49,779 nucleotides of DNA from Dimargaris cristalligena (taxonomy: Eukaryota). The stretch covers positions 1 through 49,779 of the forward strand of contig ML002275.1 of NCBI GenBank assembly GCA_003614675.1, read 5' to 3'. The position numbers were made by a program, and so were the translations under genes. This document shows, piece by piece, positions 2 to 45,599 of the stretch. The notes beneath the pieces were generated by a model, which worked only from the letters and a program-made list of their open reading frames with translations, was not told where the DNA came from and ran no database searches. Each line of letters opens with the position of its first letter. The stretch's first letter is position 1.

Positions 2-1741
2 CAGGTCGACTGCCAGGCCGAAGCCGCCTTTTGCAACCAGGAACTCATCGACGGCTACCCCACCATGTTCGTTTACCGCAATGGCGTGAAAGTGGAGAAG
101 GTCGAGTACGGGGATCCCAACAAGTACGACCCCATCCTTAACTACGTCAAATTCATGGCCAATAAGCATATGGTCCCGGCGACGGAGACCGTTACTCCCG
201 GCGGGGCCACAACCACTGTCGCCGCCCTCGCCCCTGCCGCCGCCGCCACCGTCTCTTCCGGGGATACTGTCCCGGCCGTGGTGCCCTCTGTGGTCCAACC
301 AACCAACAAGACTCCCGCGCAACCCCTGGGTCCGTATAACCGCGAAGGCCGAAGCGTGGTACTTACCGAGGATAACTTCGAGTCCTTGATTAAGGACGGC
401 CCGTGGTTCATCAAATTCTACGCCCCCTGGTGCATCCACTGCCAACACCTGGCCCCGACCTGGGAGGCCTTGGCCAAGGAACTGGCCGGCGATATCCATG
501 TGGGTGAAGTGGACTGCATGAGCTTCGGCAGTTTCTGCAACAATAAGGGGATTACCGGCTATCCCACACTGACCTTCTACCTGGAAGGCTCTAGCGTGAA
601 CTTCAGCGGGGATCGCACAGTTGAGTCCCTAGCCAAGTTTGCCCGCGAGTCCTATGGTACCCGTCATAAGGAAGTGGAATCCCGTCACGAGCTGGACAAG
701 AGCACCGCGGGTTTGGACATGTGGTATCTGTACGTGTTCGACGGCCAGACGGACGCCAAATACCTGGAAACCATTCAGCGGGCCGCCCGGGCAACCTTTA
801 TGCAGTCCAGTTTGTTTACCAGCCAGGACGCCAACCTGCTGACCGGCAACTTCGCCATCCCCCGTGTGGGCCCTCTCCGCGCCAATGTACCCAGTCTCTG
901 GGCCTTCAAGGATGGCTACCTCCGCCCCTACCGCCAAGGTCTTAACGACTTTGACCGGATTAAGGCCTGGATGCAAAAGGAACGCTACTCCCTGCTTTCG
1001 CAGCTAACGACCCAGAACGCCGAGGAATTCTTTGACTCGGCCGATTTGGTGGTCATGTCCATCCTGGATACCGATACCCGTCGGGTCACCGCTGAACAAA
1101 TTGAGAACTGGAAAATGATGGCCCGCCAGGCCGCGGACGATATCGTGGTCATCCAGCACGGCGAGTCGGAGTTGAATCCCCCGCACCTCATCAAGGGCAG
1201 TGGGGCGGCCGCCCAGCAGGCCTCTCCCGCCGCCGCCGCGGGTACCGGTTTCAACGACTCCCCGCACCGCCGATTCCTGGGTCTGGGGGATAACGACCTA
1301 GGTCCCGAGGAAATTGTGGCCCAGAAGATTCGTGGCCAAACCATTCGCTTCGTCTGGCTGAGCATCGACACTTGGGACAAGTACCTGCACCGGGTGTTCG
1401 GGATGAGTCGGGCGGACCTGCCCAAGGTGGTACTCACCCGCCCCAAGGACGAGGTGTTCTTCGATCGCGACAGCGAAGGTTACCCCCTGTATCTGACCAA
1501 CAGTGAGGACCTGGTCAGTGCCGTCAAGGCCTCCATGGTTGACCGACTCCCCATCAGTTACACGTCGGGCTTCATCGTGGGATCGATCCGCAGCTCTTTC
1601 CGTCGGGTCTCGAACTCGTTTGCCTGGGCCGCCAGCCATCCCTTCACTTCACTATTCTTGGTGGGCGTGATTGGAGCCGTCATCTACTACTACATCAACG
1701 GCATTCCCGGCCACGTTTATAAGCCCAACAAGCTTGACTAG
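2..1741 (+). CDS. Membrane-anchored ER protein disulfide isomerase / thioredoxin-domain protein (Eps1-like), 5' end outside window
   Basis: Frame is open from base 2 (QVDCQAEAAFCNQELIDGYPTMFVY = end of an upstream thioredoxin domain). It is followed by a full thioredoxin domain with FIKFYAPWCIHC and GEVDC...GYPTL, inactive Trx-like domains, a C-terminal TM helix (FTSLFLVGVIGAVIYYYI) and a short Lys-containing tail (KPNKLD). Confidence 0.9.
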   Translation, partial: QVDCQAEAAFCNQELIDGYPTMFVYRNGVKVEKVEYGDPNKYDPILNYVKFMANKHMVPATETVTPGGATTTVAALAPAAAATVSSGDTVPAVVPSVVQPTNKTPAQPLGPYNREGRSVVLTEDNFESLIKDGPWFIKFYAPWCIHCQHLAPTWEALAKELAGDIHVGEVDCMSFGSFCNNKGITGYPTLTFYLEGSSVNFSGDRTVESLAKFARESYGTRHKEVESRHELDKSTAGLDMWYLYVFDGQTDAKYLETIQRAARATFMQSSLFTSQDANLLTGNFAIPRVGPLRANVPSLWAFKDGYLRPYRQGLNDFDRIKAWMQKERYSLLSQLTTQNAEEFFDSADLVVMSILDTDTRRVTAEQIENWKMMARQAADDIVVIQHGESELNPPHLIKGSGAAAQQASPAAAAGTGFNDSPHRRFLGLGDNDLGPEEIVAQKIRGQTIRFVWLSIDTWDKYLHRVFGMSRADLPKVVLTRPKDEVFFDRDSEGYPLYLTNSEDLVSAVKASMVDRLPISYTSGFIVGSIRSSFRRVSNSFAWAASHPFTSLFLVGVIGAVIYYYINGIPGHVYKPNKLD

Positions 1742-8723: not shown

Positions 8724-9009
8724 ATATGGGTGGAATTCGGCCCAGCTATATAAGGGTTTACATTATACGTGTATGGGAAAATATATGGGAAATGTATTGT
8801 TAACTAGTAATATTGGCTGAATCTAATGGATTTTTCGTTATACAGCTTGGATGAACTTCTCGCATATGGATAAAATTCAAACCAACCATATATAAGGGTT
8901 TACATAATACATATATGGGCGAAAATATGTGAGAATGGCTTTTAACCAGTAATATTGGCCTCATCCAATGGATTTTTCCCTTTACAGCCTGAATGAACTT
9001 CTCACATAC
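8724..9009 (+). mobile_element. Head-to-tail tandem pair of ~140-bp MITE (copies 1 and 2: 8724-8867, 8864-9009)
   Basis: Both units match the dispersed family ATAT-GGATGAAATTCAAACCAGCTGTATAA...TTATACAGCCTGAATGAACTTCTCCC-ATAT and share one ATAT at 8864-8867. Confidence 0.85.
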
Positions 9010-10229: not shown

Positions 10230-10373
10230 ATATGGATGAAATTCAAACCAGCTGTATAAGGTTTTACATAATACATGTATCGGCAAATGTATATGGGAAT
10301 AGCTTTTAACTAGTAATGTTGACCTCACCCAATGGATTTTTCATTATACAGCCTGAATGAACTTCTCCCATAT
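10230..10373 (+). mobile_element. MITE copy 3
   Basis: Imperfect terminal inverted repeats, ATAT on both sides, and high similarity to the five other copies. Confidence 0.88.
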
Positions 10374-11020
10374 GTACTTTTGAAGCTACACACAATTATA
10401 CTGTGCCTAAGCCCAATCTGTTTAAGGAACTGACGATGGACCTTGGGCGTACGCGGTCTGTTTCTCCCTCTCACCTATTCGAGTCGGCTTTTGTATCTAT
10501 CCAATTTTCGGAAGTCCATTACAATACCTACCCCGCGGGGTAAGCGCTACGCCGTACCTTATAAAAGGGATAAGTAACGATGACGCCGCCCATGCCTGCT
10601 TTCTAAAGCAATGTAATTAACCTGTTTTGCCGACATTCGTCACTTCCTTACCCCACTACAAAAACAAAAGAAAAAACGTCTCATCTCTAGTCATTTCATT
10701 ATCAATCATACACTTACTTACAGGTTAATGTACCATATACAATTATGCTGTAAACAAATCATTCTCAGGCAATAACGAGTGCCACACCTTCCCCTTTTCC
10801 CCTAACGGTTCACCGAAAGCACAGTAGTATTCGGGATTATTGTTTTTCTTATTTCCTGGCAATACCTCCTGTTCTACACGCACCCCCTTATTCCTATTCC
10901 GCCTTTATTACAGCACGCTCCCCCCGCCGAAAAATTCGATTATTAAACCCCTCTCACGCCTGCCATTTCCGGGTATATCCCCTCCCTCCCCCCACACATT
11001 CACCCCCTGCTCTTGCAATC

Positions 11021-15060: not shown

Positions 15061-16244
15061 ATGCCTCCAACTATGATTACCACATTCCACCAGGGTCCCA
15101 ACCAGCACTTTAGCTCCAGTCATGGCCACCATCGCCACTACCCCCACCACCGACATGTTCACTCACACCCGCACTCGCACTCCCATACGAGGTTGGACGT
15201 TGGTCCGTCGGTGCCGCCCATAATTGCTTCGCCAAACCATTCTGTTCCGCCGTCGGTACCATCGCCATACACGTACCCGTCGTCATCCTACAGATTATCA
15301 ACCCCGCATAACATCGAGCCCGTCTATCATCATCATCGTCGTCATCATCATCACCCAACCACGACGACCACGACCACGACCACAACCGTGGCCACGACCT
15401 CTACCACATCCCTGGGCTACCCAAACAAACTGGTTCTACCGTCGCTCCGCTCTCCAGGCAGCGTCATCGAACTGCCCCGACCTTTCCCCGACCATTATAT
15501 CGAGCGAACGGCCATCGCCTCCCCGGAATGGCCTAGGTCCACTACTCCGGCGTCGTACCTTAACAACCACTTATCCGGGCCGTCCCCCCCGACCAAACGG
15601 ACCAAACTATCACCGACTACTACTACTATTACTACTACTACTACAACCCCGAGTTCAATACTGGTACCCGCTCGTTCCCGCCGGAAAGTGACCCCGTTGA
15701 ATTTGACGGAAGGTATTTCGCAGTTGCACCAGAGACTACAGGCCTTGGAGGTCCGGTTCGGCTTTTTACGGGGCCATTTTCAGTTGCCCCAACTACCACC
15801 GAAATTCATTAGTCTGGATTTGACCCCGGCGGCCCACCCCAGCAGTCCGGCCCAGGTCGGTAAGTCGCCGGCGTCGTCACTACTGCTACTGCCACCGCTG
15901 TCGTCCACCTCGTCTGTTTTATCGGGCATCCTGCCGCCACTAACGCAAGCGCGTACCCCCAGGCCTACTACTGCTCCTACTACTACGTGTGGGTCTATCA
16001 TGTCGACCGCAGGCGGTCTAGACCCCCGCCCTATAGCCGCGGAGTCACGGCCCGAAGATTTAATTCGCAATCTTTTTGAGCTACGGGATACTAACTACCG
16101 CCTTTCTTGGTACTACATTAAAAACAAATGCGAGGTAAGTAGTGTGCCTCTCCTCCCCCCCCCTCCTACTGGGATTATCCACCAATACTCGAGGAAATTG
16201 AGGCTGCGCCTCCCACTTCTGGCTCACTTCATCTTCCCCCTGCG

Positions 16245-16924: not shown

Positions 16925-16960
<36 letters not shown>
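16925..16960. repeat. (AT)18 microsatellite between convergent genes
   Basis: Direct reading of the sequence. Confidence 0.9.
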
Positions 16961-17287: not shown

Positions 17288-17505
17288 TTACGGGCGACGC
17301 TTACCGGGGTTTCGGTAGTTGGTCATGGCGTTGTCACTTCCAATGACCCCCACTTTGCCCTTGACTGTATCGGGGGACGCGAAAATCGATTTCGAATTAA
17401 TGCCGGAACCTTTCTTGAGTTTTTTGTTGAATTCCTGCCACGCATTCTGCTTCTCCCGCTGGATTTGTCCGGCCGAGGGTCCTTTGGCTTTCCGTTTGGC
17501 GGACT

Positions 17506-17544
<39 letters not shown>

Positions 17545-18361
17545 CGGGGTTTTTTACAGTCGAAGGTGCGGCTGGAGCCGGTGTCACTTCGGCACTTGAC
17601 GAAGCCGGTTGGTTAGTGGAGGGTGGCTGGGTGGGATGGGTTGAAGGGACATGCTTGGTTGAATCAGATGGAGTACTAATGGCCGTGGTGGAGCTCGGGG
17701 TAGGCTCGCTGGTTGCTATCGTCGTTGAAGTACTAGGAGAAGTGGGCTTCTTGACCAATGGTTTGAGATCGCGCGGCTGAACGATTTCGGTATTGCCGTA
17801 GCCAGTGAACAAAACGGTTAGTGTGGGCTCTGTCGTTTGTACCAGACCCTCGTAGTATTGATTGTCTACATGCCACTTGGCAAGGCAACGGTCGCCCACT
17901 TTCCATGTTATACGTTTACTCAGTTCTAAAAAATATTAAATATAAAAGAGGATATGTAAAACGAGGGTACCCGTCGAAAGGAAGGTGGTCAGTGTGAGTA
18001 TACTGCGCTTACTGTCTTTTGGTGGGGGAGCCAGTCCTATGTATTGCTAGGTGAGGTACATGTTTAGTTGTATGTGTCAGAGAGAGGGTGTGGAGAAACA
18101 GTCATTCGTTCAGCGATTTGATCAATACGGTATAGTTTTTTTTTCGTACGCCTCGCTTAGGGTTGAGGAATGACGGAACTACTTACCAAATGACGAAGAA
18201 GCGGGGGCTTTCGGGGGTTTGGCTAGGGCTTCGGTAAGTTGAATAACGGTTGTCAAGTCCTTGTGTAATTTAAGCCATTCCTCATTGGTTGGATCTTGCT
18301 TAAGTAGCAGTTCGATTTGTTTGAGTTGATAGCGATGACTTTCGAGCTCTTGGGCGCTCAT
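17288..18361 (-). CDS. SPF30: Splicing factor SPF30/SMNDC1-like Tudor protein; exons 18361-18187, 17925-17288; ~270 aa
   Basis: N-terminal helical hairpin (ELESHRYQLKQIELLLKQDPTNEEWLKLHKDLTTVIQLT), Tudor domain (WKVGDRCLAKW..YYEG..VLFTGYGNTEIV) and C-terminal KQNAWQEF..SIFASPD..GKVGVIGS. The phase-1 intron GTAAGT..TAG restores the frame. A further short 3' exon after a GTAAGC near 17300 cannot be excluded. Confidence 0.9.
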
Positions 18362-21620: not shown

Positions 21621-21875
21621 CGATACCTGTTTGGAAATGCGGCCCTGGTGCTTTACTGACTTGTTTGCACTTATTACATTAAGAATAGTTTGGACCTTCT
21701 TCGCCTAACCAACGCCACGCCCTATCTTCTATATTAACCAACCCGTTCTTCCACTCTCTTCTACTGAATCCCTATATATCTATTTTTCAACGCATTACTG
21801 TCCCCTAACTCGTCCGTTGGCTGTGACTGCTTCTCCTTTTCTCTTACTAAACCACCGTTTGCCCTTACTATTACC

Positions 21876-22868
21876 ATGGCCACTTCCGTTCAGCTTAAGA
21901 CCCAGAGCTACGGCAAAGACCGTGTGCGTCTGGTTAAGGTCGTCCGCCACCCCGGGGGTGTCCAAGACCTAGCCGAATTAACCATTACCGTGCTTCTGGA
22001 GGGGGACTTTGAGGCCTCGTATGCCCAGGCCGACAACCGCAACGTTGTAGCTACCGACAGTGTTAAGAATACCATTTATGTGTTGGCCAAACGTTTGCCT
22101 TCCGTCCTGCCCATTGAGAACTTCGCCCTGACCATTGGTCACCATTTCCTCCATACCTATGGCCATGTCACCCGCGTGCATGTCTCCATTCAGCAGCACC
22201 CCTGGAATCGCTTGGTTGTCGACGACGAGGCCCATCCCCATGCGTTTACCCGTGGTGGGGAATGGCGTCGAACCACTCAGCTGGTGGCGGAGCGCAAGGT
22301 AGCGGCGGCTGCTCCTCCTAACCTGAAAAACTCTCCTGCCCCCAAGAAGACCACCGACGCTACTTTGGCTGCCGCTGCGGCGACCGCCGCCTGGACTGCC
22401 CGTATCACGTCGGGCTTCCGTGGAGTTTCAGTCCTGAAGACCACTGGCTCGTCGTTTAGCAATTTCCTGCGGGACCAATACACCACGTTGGCCGAGACCG
22501 ATGACCGCATCCTCAGCACCAACATTGACTGCCAGTGGAGCCTGAGCTTGACGGACCCCGAGGCCCTTCGGGTAACGGACTTTAGCCATACTTTTGATGT
22601 GGTTCGCCAACATACCCTGAAGCTGTTTGCCCAGGATAACAGTGCCTCCGTGCAAGCTACCCTGTTCCGCATGGCCGATGTCGTTCTGCGGGACTGCCCG
22701 GGTGTGCAGGAAATCAGCTACGCCCTGCCCAATAATCATGTGTTTGGGGTTGATTTGAAGCCATTTGGCCTGAACAATACGGGCGCTAATTTGGATGTTT
22801 ACATGCCCATCTCGGACCCGTCCGGCCTGATTACAGCCACCATCACCCGTAAGAGTGCCAATCTGTAG
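21876..22868 (+). CDS. uox: Urate oxidase (uricase), intronless, 330 aa
   Basis: Motifs YGKDRV, VVATDSVKNT, VLKTTGSSF..F.RD.YTTL.E..DRILST, SASVQATL, LPNNH and DPSGLI. C-terminal ANL is a PTS1 variant. Confidence 0.96.
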   Translation: MATSVQLKTQSYGKDRVRLVKVVRHPGGVQDLAELTITVLLEGDFEASYAQADNRNVVATDSVKNTIYVLAKRLPSVLPIENFALTIGHHFLHTYGHVTRVHVSIQQHPWNRLVVDDEAHPHAFTRGGEWRRTTQLVAERKVAAAAPPNLKNSPAPKKTTDATLAAAAATAAWTARITSGFRGVSVLKTTGSSFSNFLRDQYTTLAETDDRILSTNIDCQWSLSLTDPEALRVTDFSHTFDVVRQHTLKLFAQDNSASVQATLFRMADVVLRDCPGVQEISYALPNNHVFGVDLKPFGLNNTGANLDVYMPISDPSGLITATITRKSANL

Positions 22869-23099: not shown

Positions 23100-23243
23100 A
23101 TATGGGTGAAATTCGACCCAACTGTATAAGGTTTTACATGGTATGTGCATAAGAGAATAGGCGGGATATTCAGTTATAACCAGTAGCGATTGCCTTATCC
23201 AACGGATTTTTAGTTATACAGCCTCATTGAACTTCTCTTATAT
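23100..23243 (+). mobile_element. MITE copy 4 (diverged), 3' of uricase
   Basis: ATAT-GGGTGAAATTCGACCCAACTGTATAA...TTATACAGCCTCATTGAACTTCTCTT-ATAT. Confidence 0.82.
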
Positions 23244-24135
23244 GAAGTTGGCTTTACTCAATAATGATATTAACGGTGGCATAATAATTGAACGAGGGGG
23301 GGGGCATAGTCGGGTAATATACGCACTTCCAATAGACCCCCACAGGAACAGTCCGTAGAAGGGAGAGGATACCATCTTTGCCCTTGGTCACACAAATCAG
23401 GTGAAAGGGAAGGGTGAATAGGGGCACCACGTTCGATCTGCTGACACTGGCCAAGTCCTTTTTGGCAAATTATTTGGTAGCGACATCCTTTACAAATCAT
23501 CTTGCACTTTTGCGTTAGGGAGTCCCTCGTATCTATCTAACTTGGGGCGGATGCTTGCATTGGAATATATAATTATATCCATGCCAAGAATGGTTCCAGA
23601 AAGGGTAAATGGCAAACTACTTCAATTTACGAATTAGTTCATGCTAACTAATGGAGTAGTCGCTGTGGCGGCACTCTAAACTATTGCCGATGAAGTCCCC
23701 ACACGCAAGAGTTTGGAATAAAGAGGCATTTGTTTGGCTGGGTGAGGAACTGTAATGGCGGTCTCTCTTTTGGAGGGAATGGGCCTAGTAGGGCCCAGAA
23801 ATAGTATCCACAGGGGAGGGGAGGAAGTTCTTACTTACCATGCACGTCACCCGCCAAACTCCACCAGTTCCTTGGCGCGGGCGGAATGAACAGTTCTACT
23901 GTCCCTCCTTCACTCAATTAAGCCGCAACTCTCTCCTTTCAGACTGCCATTTTGTTTCTTAACTTACTCCATTCATCTTGTCTCGCCCATCCCTTTGTTA
24001 CTCATTAGTTGCCCTTTCCCACTGCACCTTTGCGTTCATCATTCTGTTTCTGTTAAGGAGCCTTTCCACCCCTTTCGCTCTCTAGAACTCTATTTCCCAG
24101 CCTCTCCCCCCCAATTATACCCCGGACTAGCTTCC

Positions 24136-26661
24136 ATGGTCACCCGTCTACTCTACGGCAACTGGATCGATGACTATATCGGTAAGTAGCCCCGAACCAA
24201 GGGTAACCACCACGTATGCCGAGCCAAAAGTACATCCAGTATCACCTAAACTAACCCCTGACTTGCTGTACCCGCCTGGTTTCACCATTTTCCTATACTC
24301 TCTACATTCCCTCCCTGTCCGTTGGTTATCCTAGACCGGGCCACTGCCGAAACCATTCCACGTGGTCAGGAGGACTATGGCATCATCCTCGAAATCTGCG
24401 ACCAGGTCCGGAGCAAGCAGATGCCCGCCCGGGACGTCGCCAGGTCGATACGGCGGCGCATTGCTCACAAAAACCCCAATGTGCAGATCCTGGCCCTGAA
24501 GCTTACCGACATGTTGGTCAAGAACGGAGGCGCCCCCTTTCTGGCTGAAGTAGCCGGCCGGGAATTCATGGACGACTTGGTATCGCTTATCCATGCGCCG
24601 CAAACGGTGCTCCACTTTGAGGTCCAACGCCTACTTCTCCAATTGATTCAGGATTGGGCCCTGGCCCTCCAGAGCAAGCCCGAATACCCGTACCCGGTCC
24701 AGGTTTACCACCGACTGAAGGCAGAGGGACTCCCGTTTCCCGCTCCGGGCCGCTCCAATGCACCCGCTATTGTCGAGACGGCAACGGCCCCCGAGTGGAC
24801 CGACAGCGATGTATGCATGCGGTGCCGGACGGGTTTCACCATGACGAACCGGAAACACCATTGCCGGAACTGTGGTCAGACCTTCTGCCAGCAGTGCTCG
24901 TCCAACAATTCGGCCCTTCCGCATTTTGGCATGAGTGACCCCGTGCGGGTATGCCACGGTTGTTACCTCAAGCTCAAGAAGATTGTATACTCTTCCGAAA
25001 CGTACCCCGGCTCTAACCAGCTCAACGGCTCGGGCACTGCTACCTCCAAATCGACCCCCCATACGTCCCACTCTATTAAACCCGAGTACCCGCACCGCCA
25101 TTCTTCCAGTCGCAGTCGATCTTCCTCGGCGGCTCAGGCATCATCCGCGCCGGCTGCCCGTGCCGGCGAAGAGGATGACGAAGACTTAAAGCTGGCCATC
25201 CAGCTCTCGCTAAAGGAGGCCCAGCAGCACCGGCGAAGCTATAATTCGGTCGCGATGGCCCCAAAGGCCCCTCCTGTAGTTTCCCAGGGGACTACCTCGG
25301 TGGTTACCCACGCCCGCTCTCCCTCTGGTCAGACCAGGGGGTATACCGTGGAGGATGTTAAAGTGGTAGGCTCTGTACATCGACCGACCGAAGAGCCGTC
25401 TGCAGCGAGTGTGGAAGAGGAAGACCCCGACCTCGCTGCTGCGATTGCTGCATCCATCCAAGAGATGAGACTCGATGAGGCCCGGCGAACTGGTCGGCCG
25501 ACAAACACCGCACCTGGGCCCATGTCTCCGGCCAATTCCTCGTTCCTCTCCAGCAATGCCCTCCCGGGCGATTCAACCGGCCAGGGGACTGTCGGGTCCG
25601 TGGGACCAGTGGCCCTGAAATCATACGAACTGAGCACCCTGGAGAAGGAAAACATCGAGCTATTCGCCACCTTGCTGCTACGGGTTCAAAATGATGCGGC
25701 AGCCAAGGGTGCCCAGCCCAATCTCCATGAGCACCCCCAGCTGCCCTATCTGCACGAGCAAATCGGCAAACTACAACCCAAATTGGCCCGCAACCTGGCC
25801 GAGGTCGTCGGCACTCACGAGCGTCTGTTGTCCCTCCACGCCAAGATTGGACAGGCTGTACGACAGTACGATGGTCTTTTGGACCAGCGTATTTCATTGG
25901 CCCGGCATAACAGTACTCCCGGAGGTGGTGACCCGAAACTAGGAACGACAACGGCCATGCCCTCGTCTTATGCACCGGGGCCTCCCCACCCAACCTACGT
26001 TAATCAAACGTATCCGGGTACACCATTCGCGCCCTCGGCGCATAACGGTGGCTACCCATTACCACCACCGCAGGGGGCAGTTCCATTTGATGGAGGTGCC
26101 GGCGCACAAGGTTACCCAACATACCCAATGGTGGCTCCGGGCGGGGCGGGGGGGTACTCCCACCCCGGATCCGTGGTCGGTGGAGGCCCCCCAACTCCTG
26201 TATCGGGCCCAGGCCCAGTAGCCGTGTCCGGTTATCCTCCCCCATCGACACCTACCCCACACGCTTATCCCGTTAACGGACAAGCCCCAGTTGTTGGTTA
26301 TCCGACCAGCCCCGCTGCATATCCCATGCCAATTCCGACTTCTGGTGCGAACCCGTACCCTGAAGGCGGCTACGTCATTCCCGGTAGTGGGATGGCGCCA
26401 ACTCCCAACACGCTTACCTCCCAGGGACAACCGTCGGCCGCACCTACCTATCCCCCGTCGGCCACACCATACTATTATCCACCCGCCACGGGAGCCCCTC
26501 TCACCAGCTATCCCCCCATGCAACCTACGCATCCCCCCAATGGTGGGGTATCCTCACCTAATGGACACCACCCATCGTCCGAAGCCCAACTCCACCAACC
26601 GCAACAGCAGCAAACACCACCCCCGGCACCTGTAGAAGAGGCCCCGTTGATTGAGTTATAA
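24136..26661 (+). CDS. VPS27: ESCRT-0 subunit Vps27/Hrs; exons 24136-24181, 24335-26661; 790 aa
   Basis: VHS domain, FYVE finger (W.DSDVCMRC..RKHHCRNCG..RVCHGC), two UIMs (DEDLKLAIQLSL, DPDLAAAIAASI), GAT/coiled coil, Pro/Tyr-rich tail and terminal clathrin box LIEL. The intron is phase 1, GTAAGT..CTAG. Confidence 0.96.
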
Positions 26662-29694: not shown

Positions 29695-29702
29695 TATAAA
29701 TA
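29695..29702 (+). promoter_or_regulatory. TATA box of the secreted peptide precursor gene
   Basis: TATAAATA lies about 180 nt upstream of the ATG, within a duplicated CCGTATAA, and is followed by a pyrimidine-rich leader. Confidence 0.5.
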
Positions 29703-29875
29703 CTGCGACCATTGACCGCAAATTAATGAAAATCATCATCAGCTCAAGCAACTTCCATCTCTTACGACTCAGTTCATTCTAACGACTCTTCTCTTCCCCC
29801 CTAGAACTCTTTTTTTTTAAGTTTACGACCTATTCTCTACACCCTCCTTCCTACCCTCACCGCCAAACCATCAAC

Positions 29876-30379
29876 ATGCGTTTCTCCACCACCATTGCCC
29901 TCTTCGGCCTCGCCGTCCTCGCCTCCACTGTAATGGCCTCCCCCGCCGGTCCCGCCGAAGGAGAAGCCGGTGCCGTTGACTTCGATGATGATGACAACAC
30001 CGGCCTTTTCGACACTGAGAGCGCCGACGATGATGCCTCTTCCATTATCGGCAAGCGCGATTTCCAACAGACCAAGGAGAAGAGCGGTATGATCGGTATG
30101 CCCATCATCTTCGGCGCCAAAGGCCAGAAGACCTGGTTGGAACGCCAGCACGCCCCCGTTCATGCTGCTAGACCCGCTTACCGCCAGCCCGCCCACAAGT
30201 CGTACGCCCCCAAGTACCGCCGTGATTTCCAGCAGACTAAGGAGAAGAGCGGTATGATCGGCTTCCCCATCATCTTCGGCACCAAGGGCCAGAAGACTTG
30301 GTTGGAACGTCCCGCTGAGGTCCGCCAGGCCCCTGTCCACGCCAAGCCCTATGCCCCCAAGCACTACGGCAAATACTAA
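29876..30379 (+). CDS. Secreted Kex2-processed repeat peptide precursor (KEP-like), 167 aa
   Basis: Signal peptide MRFSTTIALFGLAVLASTVMA, then an acidic pro-region. KR and RR each precede DFQQTKEKSGMIG[M/F]PIIFG[A/T]KGQKTWLER. Codons are strongly biased to C/G endings. Confidence 0.88.
   Translation: MRFSTTIALFGLAVLASTVMASPAGPAEGEAGAVDFDDDDNTGLFDTESADDDASSIIGKRDFQQTKEKSGMIGMPIIFGAKGQKTWLERQHAPVHAARPAYRQPAHKSYAPKYRRDFQQTKEKSGMIGFPIIFGTKGQKTWLERPAEVRQAPVHAKPYAPKHYGKY
30059..30310 (+). repeat. Internal coding duplication: two 87-nt cores (30059-30145, 30224-30310), period 165 nt
   Basis: A 29-codon alignment shows 6 synonymous and 2 non-synonymous codon differences. Confidence 0.92.
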
Positions 30380-33816: not shown

Positions 33817-33956
33817 AGATGGATAAAATTCAAACCAGCTGCAGAAGGTTTTACATAATATGTGTATGGGCAAATGTGAGAATAGCTTTTAACCAGTAAT
33901 ATTGGCCTTATCCAATGGATTTTTCATTATACAGCCTGAATGAGCTTCTTCCAAAT
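33817..33956 (+). mobile_element. MITE copy 5
   Basis: GGATAAAATTCAAACCAGCTGCAGAA...TTATACAGCCTGAATGAGCTTCTTCC, flanked by AGAT/AAAT. Confidence 0.85.
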
Positions 33957-34489
33957 GATAAGATTACTTTTCAACAAAGTTCCACTCCATAAATCAGAGT
34001 TGGTAGAAGTAACAAAGATGCTGTAATAGTTGGTGTGGCATACTCGCAAAATATAGATGACCGTATAAATATATCTACCATTTATTCAATTATTGGCTTA
34101 ACCAGTTGCTTTTATTATGGAATGCATGGCCCTTTACAGCAAGTAAGATTACATGGTGGGATATCGTTTTTAGGCGTAGGGAAGGAGTAATACCGGTAAC
34201 CAGTATATTTTGTGGATAGCTATCCATTTGTTTAGATAGTAATTTGAGGATGCGAAAAGCTGCATGAATAGATGTCCAAGTTAAAGTACATTGATTTATC
34301 TAAGTTCAAATCACCGCCCCTCCCCTTCCACGCTCCACACACACCATTAATCGACAGTTGCTTAACCAAGGCCAAATTGCAATAGGTCACAGATTAACCG
34401 GAATTACCAGGCTGATAGCTGTAATTGACCCCTCTTTACTTTTTCCGATTTTGAAGGAGTATGGAAACGGGTTCCACATGCGACCCACG

Positions 34490-37179
34490 TTAATGCCGCG
34501 GCGAACGGATAATTTTGCGTAGTCGCTCCGACATGCTGGACGCCCGACTACTACGACTCGGTGGGGAGGACGCATTGTAGCTCGAACCGGGCATAACGTC
34601 GCTAGACGACCGTGGGGATGAACTATAATGCGGGTCGGGGCGTGTATAAGCACTATTGCCTGAAGTGGAAGGTCGAACGGGGGGTAGGACCGAGGGGGTC
34701 GGGGAGGAAATCATGGGCTGCGGCGGCAAGGTCGAGGAACGGGTGGCGGAAATTATGTAGCGGGGTGGGGGTAACGGTAAAGGTAGGGTAGTCGTTGGAG
34801 ATGATGAGGAAGTGGCAGTGGTCGGGGTAGTGCGGTTATGGGGAAGGGTAAAATCAGTGGGGGTGGCCTCGGGACTAACCGCGCGTGAATTGGAGTAGGG
34901 GAGGGGGAGGAGGGAGGCGGCACCCTGGGGCTGGCCGGGGCCGACTGCTCGGTGGTGCCTCGTATGACAGGGGCTGGGACTGGTGGCGATCTGGGAATGA
35001 GAGGACGGAGTATCGGTCCGGTAAGTCCCCGGCGGATGGGTGGAGGGGTATTGGTGGCGTGGGGTGGAACGGTCTCCCCCAGGAGGGTTATGCGATCGCG
35101 TAGATTCAGTGGTCGACGTAGCGTCGGGGGCCGTGGGGCTGGCCGGATGGCTGCCCACGTACACATGGTCTAGGCTTAAACTGACACTTTCCCGTGGGGC
35201 CGCAAACACGGGGTTGATGATGATGGAGTTGGTCCGACCCCGGTTGCGTAGGCGAGAGGGAGTAGATGTCGATGGGACGTTGCCCGAGCGCGAAGGCCCC
35301 GGCGGGTGGGAAGTGGTAAGTGAAACGGCCGGTACTTGAGAAGATTGAGTGACGGTGAAGGGTTTAGGGGAGGTCTTGTCCTCTAGTAAGTGGTGGGGAT
35401 GGTGAGGGGACGGCTTCGGGACCGGGTGCAATGAGGCGAGGGTATCCAAGATCTCGTATTGGCGAAAGTCAATTCGGCCCCGAGTGGGTAGCCGGTCATT
35501 AAGGCGAAGGAGAAGGTGGCCAATGTGATCCAAATGGGCTTTGGTTTTTTCGGCATGGCGGCTCAGCGAGCGAACTGGGTTTGGGTTATTGGGAATACGA
35601 TTATGGGTTAGAACCGGCATGTATAAAGGCAGCCAAATAGGTTGACCACAAATTCTCGGGTATTTCGGGCAACCCAGTTAGTCATTAGGAAACCAAAGGA
35701 CTATGGGAACAAGTGCTATATAATAACTCACTTTAAAGAAACCAAGTAAAGGGTATTGGCGTTATAATGCGCAGTTGGAACGAGTCTTACCTGATGAGAG
35801 ACTACTGGAGTAAGCCTTGATCTTGGCTGTGCGGTCATGTAACTGGCCAAATATTTGGGCGGATCGAGTTTCAACTTTCGATATCTGGTCAAGAATGATC
35901 GACTAAAATGGCGGGGAAAGGTGTTCAGATGGTATACGGAGCACGGTTAAGAGATATTAAATGCAAGTGCACGTAAAATCTAAATCGGCTTTCAAATACG
36001 ATAAGCTAGAATCAGGAGCAAGGAATTGCTGGTACACGAGGACACTACTGATTTGTATGGATCAATGGTATCCCAAAGTGTTTACCTGTTCTTTTTGGAC
36101 ATCGTCGACAAGGGCCTGGACTTGATTCCGATAGACGTAGAATATGTGAGGAATGGCATCGAACATGGGTGACGCGACTGGATAGCATCGGGTAAGTATA
36201 ATGGGGTAGGTCAATATAACATCAAGGAAATATACAAATAATGTCCGTTAGAGATTATGTAGGGTACCGACATAAGGCTTGACTAAATATCAATATTGTT
36301 CAAAACAAATCACAATCCTACCTTCAAGGGCCAGATGGCTTGTCCCATTGCTAGCGGGCCATAGATTCGAGAGACTGAGGCCACTACTGACATCGGGTTT
36401 AAATATTGGCCGGAACTGGAAAGTCGAATGAGGTGGGATAAAATACAAGTCCGCTATGTAATGGCATCAGAAAATATACCGGTGGGATATTCTGCGGGTA
36501 TAATTGGTCTACAGTAGATTCGAGTAATTTAGCCAAGTCGATGGGAGTGGCTGAATGAGGCTTACCTCGGGTAGGTGATGGAGCTTATCGAGTTCGGCGT
36601 CCTGGGTATCGGATGCGCTCAACGGCCGAAATAAAGTGATTATATCGGTCTGGAGGTAGAGTAGTCCAAGAAAGTTGGGTAGGCGTCGTTAGGAAGCGGG
36701 TGGTATGATGAAGCAGCCAATAAATAGGTATCAGTAGAGTCGGAGGAAATAGGTGGGAGGGCAGTATAGCCTTGTGGAATTCAAAAAGCCCCCCCCCCCC
36801 ACTCGCCAGCCAGTCAGGGTATAATACGGAGAACGGGACTTACTTGACCAGAAGGACGCCGAGTCCTGGGCGAAAGACGAGAGCCCGTGGAATTCGGAGA
36901 CCCGTGTTCCTCGGGAATGAACTGTAAGTGAAAAGTGTGGGACCGGCCGGCAGAGTCAGCGAATGACGAGGCGGACGACACCGACGATGCCGCCGGGAGG
37001 TGCTTATCGTATTCAATCATTGAGAACCGCTGACGGGCGGTAAGGCTCTTCGTGCGGGGAGTCGGCGGGTGGGGTGGCAGGCCGTGGGTGGTGTGTGTCC
37101 GGCGAGACGGCCGACCCATGTGGGGTGGGGCCGGGGGTAGTCCACTGCCGGCGTAGGACGCGGAGTTGGAATGGGCCAT
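34490..37179 (-). CDS. BORCS5: BORC subunit 5 (BORCS5/myrlysin/LOH12CR1)-like protein with long disordered extensions; exons 37179-36844, 36649-36566, 36415-36322, 36177-36086, 35902-35791, 35574-34490; ~600 aa
   Basis: Five GT-AG introns join in frame. The spliced core TDIITL..DAELDKLHHLPEFRPIFK..YRNQVQALVDDVQKEQSIILDQISKVE..LHDRTAKIKAYSSSLSSVRSLS..LLLRLNDRLPTRGRI parallels animal BORCS5 (DDIVVV..DPDVIKLQEIPTFQPLLK..YQDHL..DQNALVKRIKEMD..LLDRLNSMLPEGERL, from recall). Confidence 0.75.
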
Positions 37180-39438: not shown

Positions 39439-39840
39439 TCAGTTGCCCAAGAGCGACAAGCCAAATATAATAGCCAAACTACCCACCAGGACCATAAAAG
39501 CCAAGGGGTAGTCGTTACGCCACGTCACCGACACCCAGTACTGGCGGAGAATCACCAAGTACCCCACCACGGCAATGACAAAGGTGCTGAGGCCCAGGGT
39601 CAGCCAGGTCAGGCTATAGGTTCGACTGTGGCGGGGGTCTAGCGGCAGAGACGACTGCTGTAGGTAGAGGGCCGCCCCCAGTACCGAGGCGGTCAAACTG
39701 AGGCGAAAAAACGAGAGAAATGTGCGTTCATACGATAGGTGGTCCCGTACGACAGAAAGTTCATGGGGAAGGGCGTGGTAGGAAGGTAGGTTACAGGCAG
39801 GGGAGTGAGAAGTGCGCAGAAGAGGCGTGGCTTCGTTCAT
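39439..39840 (-). CDS. DUF202 (YidH/Vtc1-like) three-TM membrane protein, 133 aa
   Basis: RDHLSYERTFLSFFR motif followed by three hydrophobic helices. N-terminal EATPLL dileucine motif. Confidence 0.85.
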   Translation of the reverse strand: MNEATPLLRTSHSPACNLPSYHALPHELSVVRDHLSYERTFLSFFRLSLTASVLGAALYLQQSSLPLDPRHSRTYSLTWLTLGLSTFVIAVVGYLVILRQYWVSVTWRNDYPLAFMVLVGSLAIIFGLSLLGN

Positions 39841-40665
39841 GAGGGAAAAGGAGGGTAAAGAGGAAAGGAGGGGTTTTCCTCCTAGTAAAACTAAGCGAGT
39901 GAGTGAGTAGTAGTAGTAGTAGTAGTAGTGGTGGCGGGTGCGGGTGGATGGGCAATTGGGATGAGAGAATGGAGTTGGTGAATGCACAAAGGGTAATAAT
40001 AGTAGTGGGAATATCTATTGGGAAGGAAGGGCCTGCAGTAGCAGTAATATATAAAGATGGGAGATAAGGAAAGTAAAAAAGAGTCCCTATTAATTAGCCA
40101 CAGCCATACTAAATAATAGCGGCTTTCGGTACAACTATTATTTCCGATTCAATACAACAATTGTCTCACACTCCCCAATCAAATAAGCTACCGAGGGGGG
40201 CGTACAGATAGTTGTGCCATACAAGAAATAGCCCCGTTTTCACAAATTAACCGTCTCCCCCGTTGCTGCTTATTCAGACGTCGTGCTTCTCCCTATAATC
40301 CAGACTCCCCGAGATCTTATAGACCAGAATTACAGGGGCTATTGGCTCTCATCTTCACTTGACCAATCTCGTAAATTCGACCTAGTCGTTACTGGCCGGC
40401 TAGATAAGATAATTAATTAATTACTACGCGTGATATAGTAGTATACATAGTAGAGTGGAGCATGCTTTACTTTATGACTTTTATAAAGCCATTCACAGCA
40501 AATTGGGTTGAGTGGTCCAAGCTATATCTCAAAGCAGAGATTAAATATGAATATATAGGTGAGTGTGTGTGTGCAAATTAGATGGTTCGATGGCCAATTC
40601 TGAACAACCGGGGAAAATCGCGGTGCTCAATCGATCAGAGAGGGACAATGGTTCTTCTAATCGAT

Positions 40666-43600: not shown

Positions 43601-45599
43601 CCAGAGCGATATTCAGTTGACTCAGGAACGCTTCTACCTCCGACAGGCCACATTGATTAGTGGGTCCCCCCGCCTTTAGCTCCCCCCTCGTGGGCGGGGG
43701 CAGCTCTGATGGTTCCAGGGTTCGTCCCACGAGGGAGCTATCCACATAGGACCGTTTACTCAGCGTCAGAAAGGCAAACAAGCGCGTGAGTTCGCGTACG
43801 AAGGCGTGGTTTTCCGCTTCCGCCGGGGTGTCACCGAGGAGGTCCAGAGGGGCGGGGGTTTCCGACTTGGCGGTGGAAGCACCGCTTTCCTGATTGCCGC
43901 TTCCGCCCGGGCTGCGGTCAGTCTTTTCGTCACTTAACTCCCCCTGGCCCCGCCAGTACCCGTCGGGGGGAGGCCAGATGGCTTGGCCACCCGTAGGGAG
44001 ACACTTCCATAGATGATCCCGTACGGGAGCTAGGTGGAAATAGGCGAGGCAGAGTTCGTTCAGCAATGGAACGGGATGGTCGTTAGAACTGCGGCCATGG
44101 CTAGGGTTGGGGATGGTGTGGGGAAGAGGGCGAAGTCCAACGGGATCATCTGATTTGCGTCGACGTTCTAAAGGGTTGGGCGGGTCTACCCAACCGATCG
44201 GTGAATAAGGGTCCTGAGGGACGGCTGGTACCATGGCCGAAGCCATACTGGCCTGGATGGCCCGGGCGAGGTCCTGCTCCTCCTAATAATAGGAATGTAG
44301 TTGGTAGGACGGTAATAGGGCGACGAGTGCGTTTATCAGACGAATAGAATAATGAGAGACAGTCCCGGGCATGGCGTGATATTACCGGGTAGTATGTTTA
44401 AATATGGGAGAAGTTCATTTGGGCTGTATAATGAAAAATCCATTGGATGAGGCCAATATTACTGGTTAAGGACTATTCTCCCACATATTATTCACCCATA
44501 CATGTATTATGTAAAACCCTATACAGCTGGTTCGAATTTCATCCATATAGAATAAGACCATCCTATTTAGGCCTGGCCATTCCGAGGCGGAATATCCACC
44601 ACACAACCTATGGGCGCATAGGAGAAAGAGAGGGGGGTGATCAACGAAGTTTAACCGGCCGGAGAGTTTACTAACCTGTGATTCGGGGATGGGGCTTAAA
44701 TACGAGTTGGGGCGGGGCGATGGCGATCTCCCTGTAACGTCGGACGAAAAGGGTAGTAACCGATCGTACAACTGATCGTGGTGGGGCCCCTCTGGATTCG
44801 GCCGTGACTCGGCCAGGGATGCTTGGATAGCCCGGTGGAGTTGGGTATCCTCGTCCATCATATCGTTGTCCACATCCGTAGATGGGAACTCTCCTGAAAA
44901 GTCGTACGAATTAATGGGCGGAGTGCCGGACGGCGAAATTACAATAGGGGCGTATTTGGTATTACCGGCGGAGGTGGTCGACGGAACGCCGAGGCGCGGG
45001 AAATCCTGCAGTGATTGGAGAGCGGGGGCCGCCGCCGTGGTAGTAGTAGTAGAATGGGCGGAAGCACCCGAAAGTAAAGGGCCAACAAAGGGCTCATTAT
45101 TAGGGGGAGTGGTTGCAGCATCCCAGGTCGTCGAAGTCCCGGTCATTTTAGGGTGGGACGCCAGAGGCAGAGGGGAGGTGGCGGCCACGCTGGAATAGGA
45201 TGGCGGAGGGGGGAGCTGGCTAGTGACTGAAGCCGGGTCGAGTCGGGGACTATTCGTGGGTCTGAAGGAGGGCGACGAAGCCGACGAAGGAATGGTGGTT
45301 ATACTCCCCCAATGAACGCCATTGCCACTACTGTTGTGGTTGTGGTTGGTGGTGGTGGTGGCTGCAGCCTGACTGTAGGGTGGTGGCGAGGCTGGGTGAC
45401 TGGGGTAGTGGTCACTCAGTTCGGAGGGCGTCAGGTAGCCGCCCGAGAAGAGGAAATCGGCGGCCTTGGCCACATCTTGGTTAAATCTGCGAAGGGCCCC
45501 CCGGGCCTGAGGCAGTTCGATGCCCATTTCCATCAGCTGGAGTACGCCGGGACTCAGGGCCTTCTGGGAACCGGTCGTCGAGGTGGAAGCCCCGTCCAT
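40666..45599 (-). CDS. UBA-UIM-UIM USP25/28-like ubiquitin-specific protease homolog, catalytically degenerate; exons 45599-44676, 44282-41859, 41643-40666; ~1441 aa
   Basis: UBA (LMEMGIELPQARGALRRFNQDVAKAADFLF) and UIMs (EDTQLHRAIQASL, EEQDLARAIQASM). USP-fold landmarks: NPLERRR..PVGLR, FVRELTRLFAFL..SKRSYVD, IYMDRYL, PYDLHAVIL, WLRF, V..DN. Both introns are phase 0, GT-AG. Confidence 0.8.
44402..44548 (-). mobile_element. MITE copy 6, inside intron 1 of the USP-like gene
   Basis: Reverse-complement match to the family with ATAT on both sides. Lies within intron 44283-44675. Confidence 0.88.

Follow-up and report, generated by a model that had tools for sequence, protein, structure and literature searches.

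A candidate Kex2-processed repeat protein of Dimargaris cristalligena and its undescribed family in the Dimargaritales

Introduction

Does a short, isolated gene of a fungus that parasitizes other fungi encode a secreted peptide precursor, and if so, what kind of peptides would be released from it? The gene in question (29876..30379, plus strand) lies in a stretch of 49,779 nucleotides of Dimargaris cristalligena DNA (contig ML002275.1 of assembly GCA_003614675.1), which as a whole is called the window here. The Dimargaritales live as obligate, haustorium-forming parasites on other fungi and are described as biotrophic, not as killers of their hosts (PMC9866270). Comparative genomics of the Kickxellomycotina has counted proteases and secondary-metabolite genes, and Kex2 is not mentioned in the part of that article available to us (PMC9866270). 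The original prediction, which was made from the letters of the window alone, had read the gene as a candidate for a new system of secreted peptides, cut from a precursor by Kex2 and possibly antimicrobial, cytolytic or active in host interaction. We know of no molecule that the Dimargaritales use on their fungal hosts.

Of the readings of the sequence, the best supported is that the gene is real and codes for a pre-pro-peptide of the type known as Kex2-processed repeat proteins (KEPs), from which two basic peptides of about 50 amino acids would be released. KEPs are a defined and reportedly widespread class of fungal proteins (Le Marquer et al. 2019, PMC6339444; Umemura 2020, PMC7329392). What had been called a new system is a new family instead, and the class to which it belongs was defined before (PMC7329392). 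Within this class the family is undescribed; it has no match in Pfam, in the PDB or in the literature searched.

Organization of the gene and the predicted precursor

The open reading frame (ORF) 29876..30379 is intact and has an in-frame TAA upstream at 29780. Signal peptide, acidic pro-region and two units, each unit preceded by a dibasic pair, follow one another as listed in Table 1, and the segment counts match those of the original prediction exactly. Unit 1 contains nine Lys/Arg and three Asp/Glu (net charge +6) as well as three His; unit 2 contains nine Lys/Arg and four Asp/Glu (+5) and two His. The protein, P0001 in the following, has no Cys, and KR60-61 and RR115-116 are its only dibasic pairs. 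The N-terminal signal is not followed by a second hydrophobic stretch. No N-glycosylation sequon, no glycosylphosphatidylinositol (GPI)-type tail (the protein ends with HYGKY, which is not hydrophobic) and no Ser/Thr-rich region are present in P0001, and the Pfam scan detected no PIR repeat in it.

Chance does not come near to explaining the repeat formed by the two units, with 90% identity between 30056-30144 and 30221-30309 over 89 nt (self-BLAST E = 1.5e-27). In the 29-codon core shared by the units eight codons differ, six of them synonymously and two non-synonymously, which suggests purifying selection in this frame, the count being small. A tblastn search within the window returned no paralogue besides the gene itself (next best E-value 0.16).

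Strong codon bias and a TATA box had also been noted for this gene, and the bias and a TATA-like motif are found. Its effective number of codons (ENC) of 36.6, a measure which is noisy at 167 codons, indicates the strongest bias of the nine long ORFs compared (41.0-59.1 in the others); the C content at third codon positions is 0.54. The TATA-like motif TATAAATA occupies 29695-29702. Judged by the codon bias, the peptides are probably abundantly expressed.

A small family with variable numbers of units

P0001 matched no Pfam family at E-values up to 10, MF_alpha and MF_alpha_N included. The word-indexed search found one relative, the 202-aa protein P0002 (D. cristalligena H4R33_003086). When restricted to longer proteins it returned none of 722 candidates, a blank that is uninformative, as the 434-aa member P0005 was missed as well. 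A profile built from P0001 and P0002 was run against 1,835,955,588 cluster representatives with E-values up to 0.001. Its seven matches were the two query proteins, three new members (P0005, P0006 and P0009) and the proteins P0007 and P0008. True members are five of these, the query included: P0001, P0002, P0005, P0006 and P0009. An alignment search for names gave four matches among 8000 scored candidates, with P0006 not among them; P0005 is H4R33_005754 of D. cristalligena and P0009 is IWQ60_002139 of Tieghemiomyces parasiticus. On this sequence evidence, P0001 is a member of an undescribed family and not an orphan. The named relatives come from the genera Dimargaris and Tieghemiomyces, both Dimargaritales, and in the databases searched the family appears so far to be confined to this order.

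P0007 (773 aa; E 7.7e-11) and P0008 (412 aa; E 2.1e-4) were rejected as members. No single stretch in them scored above 8.4 bits, and they possess neither a signal peptide nor the DFQQTK head nor dibasic boundaries. Both are highly repetitive, with GQPIIFSTSAQKEWRNAQ-like units, and owe their E-values only to the summing of many weak matches. Most likely they are translated repetitive DNA.

The core had not been recognized from any known family, and the searches matched none: besides Pfam and the 1.84 billion representatives, a profile search of the PDB gave no meaningful match (best E-values 1.5 and 2.3), and the string DFQQTK was not found in the literature searched. In the ESM Atlas no feature score went beyond 0.82, a value that chance matches also reach; residues 62-167 had no usable named matches, and the structure rows remained below a TM score of 0.5.

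Paralogues with variable repeat number had been envisaged in the original prediction, and the profile search brought them to light. Six units are present in P0005, three in P0006, two in P0001 and one in P0009, while P0002 has 1+1. All precursors share a common plan of signal peptide, acidic pro-region, [KR]R and one to six units; P0009, as annotated, is the only one without the signal peptide. That of P0001 matches the first D. cristalligena homologue in 17 of 21 residues. In P0002, residues ~111-202 comprise a second Met-led signal peptide, an acidic pro-region, KR and a unit. Because this signal peptide stands in the middle of the protein, two adjacent one-unit precursors seem to have been fused by the gene model, which makes the tail of the first unit unreliable. 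We therefore split P0002 into P0002a and P0002b and counted six precursors from the five proteins, with 14 units in total. The first unit of P0005 (residues 123-166) is degenerate: it starts with N in place of D and lacks the 10-residue hydrophobic segment that holds the conserved Pro.

Conserved head, variable tail and dibasic boundaries

Conservation over the 14 units reaches 80% or more at 13 of the 29 core positions, most of them polar. The core follows the pattern D-F-Q-x-T-K-x-K-S-x5-P-x5-K-x-Q-K-T-x3-R. In P0001 it is identical to the first D. cristalligena unit in 27 of 29 residues, whereas the pro-region and the tail diverge. The tails vary in length and sequence, stay basic and are rich in His, Pro, Tyr and Gly.

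[KR]R stands directly before all 14 unit starts in the five family proteins. Nine of the 14 units end in KY, which then borders on either the dibasic pair or the stop codon, and four of the six precursor C-termini have this ending; KY-RR-DF occurs at five of the seven inter-unit junctions. In P0005 four of five junctions read APKY-RR-DFQQTK and the fifth ATKY-RR; the single junction of P0001 is APKY-RR. In the P1 position Kex2 favors Arg, in P2 either Lys or Arg, and in P4 an aliphatic residue such as Leu, or Pro (PMC8528282). At the junctions of pro-region and first unit, P4 is I, I, L, L, L and P in the six precursors, which fits this preference. Since [KR]R precedes every unit and P4 fits Kex2, the dibasic sites are very likely genuine processing sites. 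Internal [KR]R pairs are absent from the units of P0001 and also from those of P0005, where shuffled sequences had a mean of 3.1 (P = 0.022).

Acidity of the pro-region

To the original prediction the pro-region appeared charge-matched to its cargo. We compared the number of Asp/Glu in the pro-region with the net charge of the mature part in the six precursors, the boundary dibasics being removed. For P0001 (12 Asp/Glu, mature net charge +11) the match stands, and it extends to P0002a (8, +6, with the tail uncertain owing to the gene model), P0009 (7, +6) and P0005 (29, +26), so that in four of six precursors the two numbers are within 1-3 charges of one another. It fails in P0002b (8, net charge 0) and P0006 (10, +29). 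The acidic residues of P0005 lie in a 122-aa leader ahead of its six units. Across the precursors the number of Asp/Glu rises with the number of units (rho 0.89, p 0.016, n=6); with net charge it correlates less strongly (rho 0.69, p 0.13). Anionic pro-pieces that counterbalance a cationic part are typical of alpha-defensins (PMC2803202). The scaling in the present family, with 7-8 Asp/Glu for one unit, 12 for two and 29 for six, amounts to a natural experiment on the purpose of pro-regions in polycationic precursors.

Physical character of the predicted peptides

The two peptides are hydrophilic, with grand average of hydropathy (GRAVY) values of -1.0 and -0.9. Their sole hydrophobic run comprises about 10 residues and is broken by Gly and Pro; the Pro content is 9-10% and the His content 4-6%. 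Hydrophobic moments were calculated for five units as helical 18-mers, helical 11-mers and beta-type 9-mers. None of these 15 tests gave a value above shuffles (P 0.35-0.98). For the 18-mers the maximum moment was 0.23-0.35 (shuffle P 0.46-0.84).

In the AlphaFold2 (AF2) model of P0001, which was based on the five-sequence family alignment, the signal peptide forms the only helix (residues 6-17). The mean predicted local distance difference test (pLDDT) was 47.9 here and 40.8 for the six-unit P0005, which showed no fold and no strands; with only five sequences in the alignment, such low values are weak evidence of disorder. The ESM Atlas model of P0001 had a pLDDT of 0.43. None of the models shows signs of a folded repeat domain, and the peptides are predicted to be intrinsically disordered. 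A complex prediction with four copies of unit 1 scored 0.01, which counts neither for nor against self-assembly.

Discussion

A precursor of this kind would enter the endoplasmic reticulum by its signal peptide, which is probably cut after Ala21, and during transit the acidic pro-region may offset the charge of the basic cargo. In the late Golgi a Kex2-type convertase would then cut after K60-R61 and R115-R116, as the conservation of the motifs suggests, and a Kex1-type carboxypeptidase would trim both Arg and leave peptide 1 with the ending APKY. As the units start with DF and neither X-Ala nor X-Pro follows the cut, no Ste13 step is expected. The predicted products are two near-identical, Cys-free, hydrophilic, basic and disordered peptides of 53 and 51 aa, probably secreted in quantity. 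Their 29-aa head could be a recognition element for a defined extracellular partner, be it a receptor, a component of the host interface or one of the cell wall. Conservation bears on the mature head and there on polar positions, with no more than the composition retained in the pro-region; we take this pattern as a signature of specific recognition. To our mind the chances are about even that the products are secreted peptides of a recognition type, which act at the host interface or in self-signaling and do not lyse membranes. A role in host interaction would be compatible with the haustorial mycoparasitic lineage (PMC9866270). A bolder form of this idea, which we regard as rather unlikely, sees in the family the first system of peptide effectors or ligands from zygomycete mycoparasites. 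Its invariant head (DFQQTK...P...KxQKTW.ER) would attach to a conserved target where parasite and host meet, and the acidity of the pro-region would have been tuned by evolution, charge for charge, to the copy number. Candidate targets would be a wall polymer or receptor of the Mucorales, or else a receptor on the parasite's own side with control over the development of appressoria or haustoria.

Several observations weigh against the interpretation as a KEP precursor of recognition peptides. With two units P0001 falls short of the minimum of three set by the published KEP pipeline, a minimum that P0005 with six and P0006 with three units reach. As the family is tiny, its statistics come from six precursors (n=6) and from 14 units that are not independent of one another; the predicted disorder comes from an alignment of just five sequences. 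Avoidance of dibasic pairs within units is not universal, as unit 1 of P0006 has four internal [KR]R, and the charge balance breaks down in two of six precursors. Moreover, a counterbalanced anionic pro-piece is a classic hallmark of cationic antimicrobial peptides (PMC2803202) and favors the antimicrobial alternative. Finally, we infer every step after translation from the sequence, and no binding partner for the head is predicted.

The charge balance is indeed the best argument for cationic antimicrobial, antifungal or cytolytic peptides that are kept harmless within the cell by a charge-matched acidic pro-piece. Net charges of +6 and +5, a pro-region acidity that follows the mature charge within 1-3 in four of six precursors and reaches 29 Asp/Glu for six units, the same counterbalance in alpha-defensins (PMC2803202) and a lineage that attacks other fungi (PMC9866270) would all suit such peptides. 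We nevertheless consider them improbable, since neither helical nor beta-type amphipathicity exceeded shuffles in any of the 15 tests, and the GRAVY values and the single short hydrophobic run with its Gly and Pro also weigh against them. Pro-rich and histatin-type peptides, for their part, have Pro or His contents above those found here. Within the precursor, conservation is highest in the mature core and lowest in the pro-region, which is the reverse of antimicrobial peptide precursors in an arms race, and the Dimargaritales are described as biotrophic and haustorial and not as killing their hosts (PMC9866270). The precursors of alpha-defensins resemble the present ones in that anionic pro-piece and cationic mature part roughly cancel (PMC2803202), as in four of six precursors here, but here cysteines and a defensin fold are absent, several mature copies are present and the mature part, not the prepro part, is conserved. 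The likeness to candidalysin, which the original prediction had cited as a toxin from such precursors, does not hold either. The candidalysin helix is hydrophobic and amphipathic and carries positive charge at one end. P0001 has no amphipathic helix with a long hydrophobic face; its moments do not exceed those of shuffles (lowest P 0.35), and no structure is predicted apart from the helix of the signal peptide. What it shares with Ece1 of Candida albicans, from which candidalysin derives and which has been named a KEP (PMC7329392), is the organization as a Kex2-cut polyprotein with peptides of a few tens of residues.

An alternative in which the peptides serve as structural material takes its model from Rep1 of Ustilago maydis, a Kex2-cut secreted repeat precursor that yields peptides of 34-53 aa without a hydrophobin fold (PMC3133707). 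Peptides of this repellent type would lodge within or upon the walls of aerial hyphae, spores or appressoria, self-assembled or cross-linked through their Tyr/Lys-rich tails, and confer hydrophobicity or adhesion. Unit size is the best argument: 12 of the 14 units as annotated measure 44-57 aa (the exceptions being 38, 78 and a misjoined 112 aa), close to the peptides of Rep1. High expression is a likely further resemblance, and the codon bias of the gene suggests abundance. Tyr, Lys, Pro, His and Gly abound in the tails, nine of 14 of which end with KY, and this may recall adhesive or cross-linked proteins. However, the exhaustive profile search found no similarity outside the family and none to Rep1, whose presence in the searched library is unconfirmed. 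Amphipathicity and amyloid formation are described for the Rep1 peptides, whereas those predicted here are very hydrophilic and basic, with an alternating beta pattern not above shuffles (P 0.35-0.98) and no strands in the AF2 models; a GPI-type C-terminus, a PIR repeat and a Ser/Thr-rich region are lacking as well. Hence a structural role of this sort seems doubtful. Far less credible still is that the precursor leaves the cell uncut, as a basic and disordered protein, or that the gene is silent or decaying. The absence of a predicted fold (AF2) and the gene-poor, AT-rich surroundings (GC 0.43 and 0.41 as against 0.60 in the coding sequence) would agree with this, but the ORF is intact with a strong codon bias, more codons of the core differ synonymously than non-synonymously, a dibasic pair is present at every unit boundary in three species, and the KY ending at the C-terminus is conserved. 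The least probable of the alternatives is a precursor of peptides made by ribosomes and modified after translation (RiPPs), with cores altered by tailoring enzymes in the style of ustiloxins and dikaritins. The cores of ust-RiPPs are only a few residues long, while the conserved unit here comprises 29-50 aa. Precursors of ust-RiPPs do use the KEP architecture, and a DUF3328 gene lies near 22% of KEPs (PMC7329392). Among the 22 window ORFs scanned against Pfam, all of at least 100 aa and read without splicing, there was no DUF3328/UstYa protein and no recognized methyltransferase, P450 or tyrosinase; the nearest genes are one for a Vps27-like protein, 3.2 kb upstream, and an unassigned Ser/Pro/Thr-rich ORF, 4.1 kb downstream.

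The known systems closest to P0001 include the KEP class itself. Le Marquer et al. define a KEP by a signal peptide, the absence of a membrane anchor and at least three repeats which are split by KR, RR or KK and make up at least 15% of the protein (PMC6339444). A signal peptide without a membrane anchor is found in P0001, as in five of the six family precursors, and the repeats amount to 35% of the protein when the cores are counted (2 x 29 of 167 residues) and to 62% when whole units are (104 of 167). With the class it shares signal peptide, pro-region and tandem near-identical units parted by KR or RR. The differences are a core that matches no described KEP type and long units of 51-53 aa; the commonest unit class in Dikarya KEPs is 9-24 aa. 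Having two units only, P0001 falls below the threshold, and KEP censuses that require at least three repeats therefore miss members with one or two; Le Marquer et al. state themselves that two-repeat alpha-pheromone precursors fall below it (PMC6339444). Umemura counted 7878 KEPs, of which 2560 were stand-alone, with the highest density in the Zoopagomycota (11.56 per strain) and 11 in D. cristalligena, listed by accession (PMC7329392). A protein like P0005 could be among these 11; the string FQQTK is absent from three supplement files of that study. The KEP class is well known and very large, so the family adds to it without changing how it is understood, and as KEPs are common a specialist would hardly be surprised.

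The alpha-factor precursors of yeast, MFalpha1 and MFalpha2, are similar in their pre-pro architecture and KR-delimited repeats, and MFalpha2, like P0001, has two copies (PMC6339444). They differ in that P0001 has no Pfam match to MF_alpha or MF_alpha_N, no Ste13 dipeptides after KR and units that are four times longer. An MF_alpha cluster in the ESM Atlas is a weak look-alike of P0001, its score of 0.79 being below the level of chance matches.

The relevance of the family lies in its combination of features. In the databases searched it is restricted to one lineage of an understudied, early-diverging group of fungi, its products are probably abundant and can be synthesized, and its core is sharply conserved, which makes it a testable candidate for a part in host contact, signaling or surface biology.

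Genomic surroundings

The peptide gene had been described as isolated and as lying beside a mutated repeat block. The first part is correct: the Vps27-like ORF ending at 26661 is 3215 nt away and the ORF 34490-35677 (minus strand) follows 4111 nt downstream. The second is borne out only in part: a repeat scan of the surroundings found no repeat adjoining the gene; the nearest is a single copy of a ~145-bp element at 33819-33960, 3.4 kb downstream. The flanks contain no long ORF, and their six ORFs of 102-137 aa have no Pfam match.

Table 1. Features of the peptide gene and of other genes in the window
Feature	Position	Strand	Basis or detail
TATA-box-like motif TATAAATA, 174 nt 5' of ATG	29695..29702	+	read from sequence; presumptive function
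Presumed 5' leader, 73% C+T, starting at last in-frame stop (TAA), A at -3	29780..29875	+	sequence
Complete coding sequence, single exon, ATG to TAA, 167 codons + TAA	29876..30379	+	ORF translation
Signal peptide MRFSTTIALFGLAVLASTVMA, 21 aa, V at -3, A at -1	29876..29938	+	judged by eye and AF2 helix
Acidic pro-region, 38 aa, 12 Asp/Glu, 0 Lys/Arg	29939..30052	+	residue count
K60-R61, predicted Kex2 site, Ile at P4	30053..30058	+	motif
Unit 1, predicted peptide 1, 53 aa, tail ending APKY	30059..30217	+	core 30059-30145
R115-R116, predicted inter-unit Kex2 site	30218..30223	+	motif
Unit 2, predicted peptide 2, 51 aa, tail ending HYGKY	30224..30376	+	core 30224-30310
AATAAA, possible polyadenylation signal, start 88 nt past stop codon	30467..30472	+	presumptive function
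Tudor-domain protein	17291-17935	-	Pfam
Uricase	21768-22865	+	Pfam
Vps27/Hrs-like protein, VHS-FYVE-UIM domains	24262-26658	+	Pfam
DUF202 protein	39442-40014	-	Pfam

Among the 22 window ORFs compared with Pfam, a protein disulfide isomerase-like protein was recognized in addition to the four neighbors of Table 1, and two more ORFs had SEEEED and UBA_7 matches below the cut-off. Uricase, the Vps27/Hrs-like protein, the Tudor-domain protein and the DUF202 protein are housekeeping neighbors with no evident link to the peptide gene. The ORF 2-1738 (plus strand), which is open at its 5' end, contains thioredoxin and thioredoxin-like domains, resembles protein disulfide isomerase and ranks second in the window for strength of codon bias (ENC 41.0; GC content at third codon positions 0.77). 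In the 395-aa product of the ORF 34490-35677, Ser, Pro and Thr are very abundant, and Pfam gave no match to it; the ORF could be an exon of a larger gene. A scan of the window for tRNAs yielded 0 genes.

The ~145-bp element is dispersed through the window in six copies that are 75-87% identical (8724-8868, 8864-9008, 10230-10374, 23100-23244, 33819-33960 and 44399-44548), two of them in tandem. Its ends are mutual inverted copies over ~30 bp (CATATGG...CTGTATAA and TTATACAG...CCATATG), which makes it similar to miniature inverted-repeat transposable elements. Stretches of 31-33 nt in three ORF-bearing regions (15616-15648, 17507-17548 and 39906-39938) are 94% identical and probably represent a low-complexity coding repeat. 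A perfect palindrome of 36 bp is present at 16925-16960.

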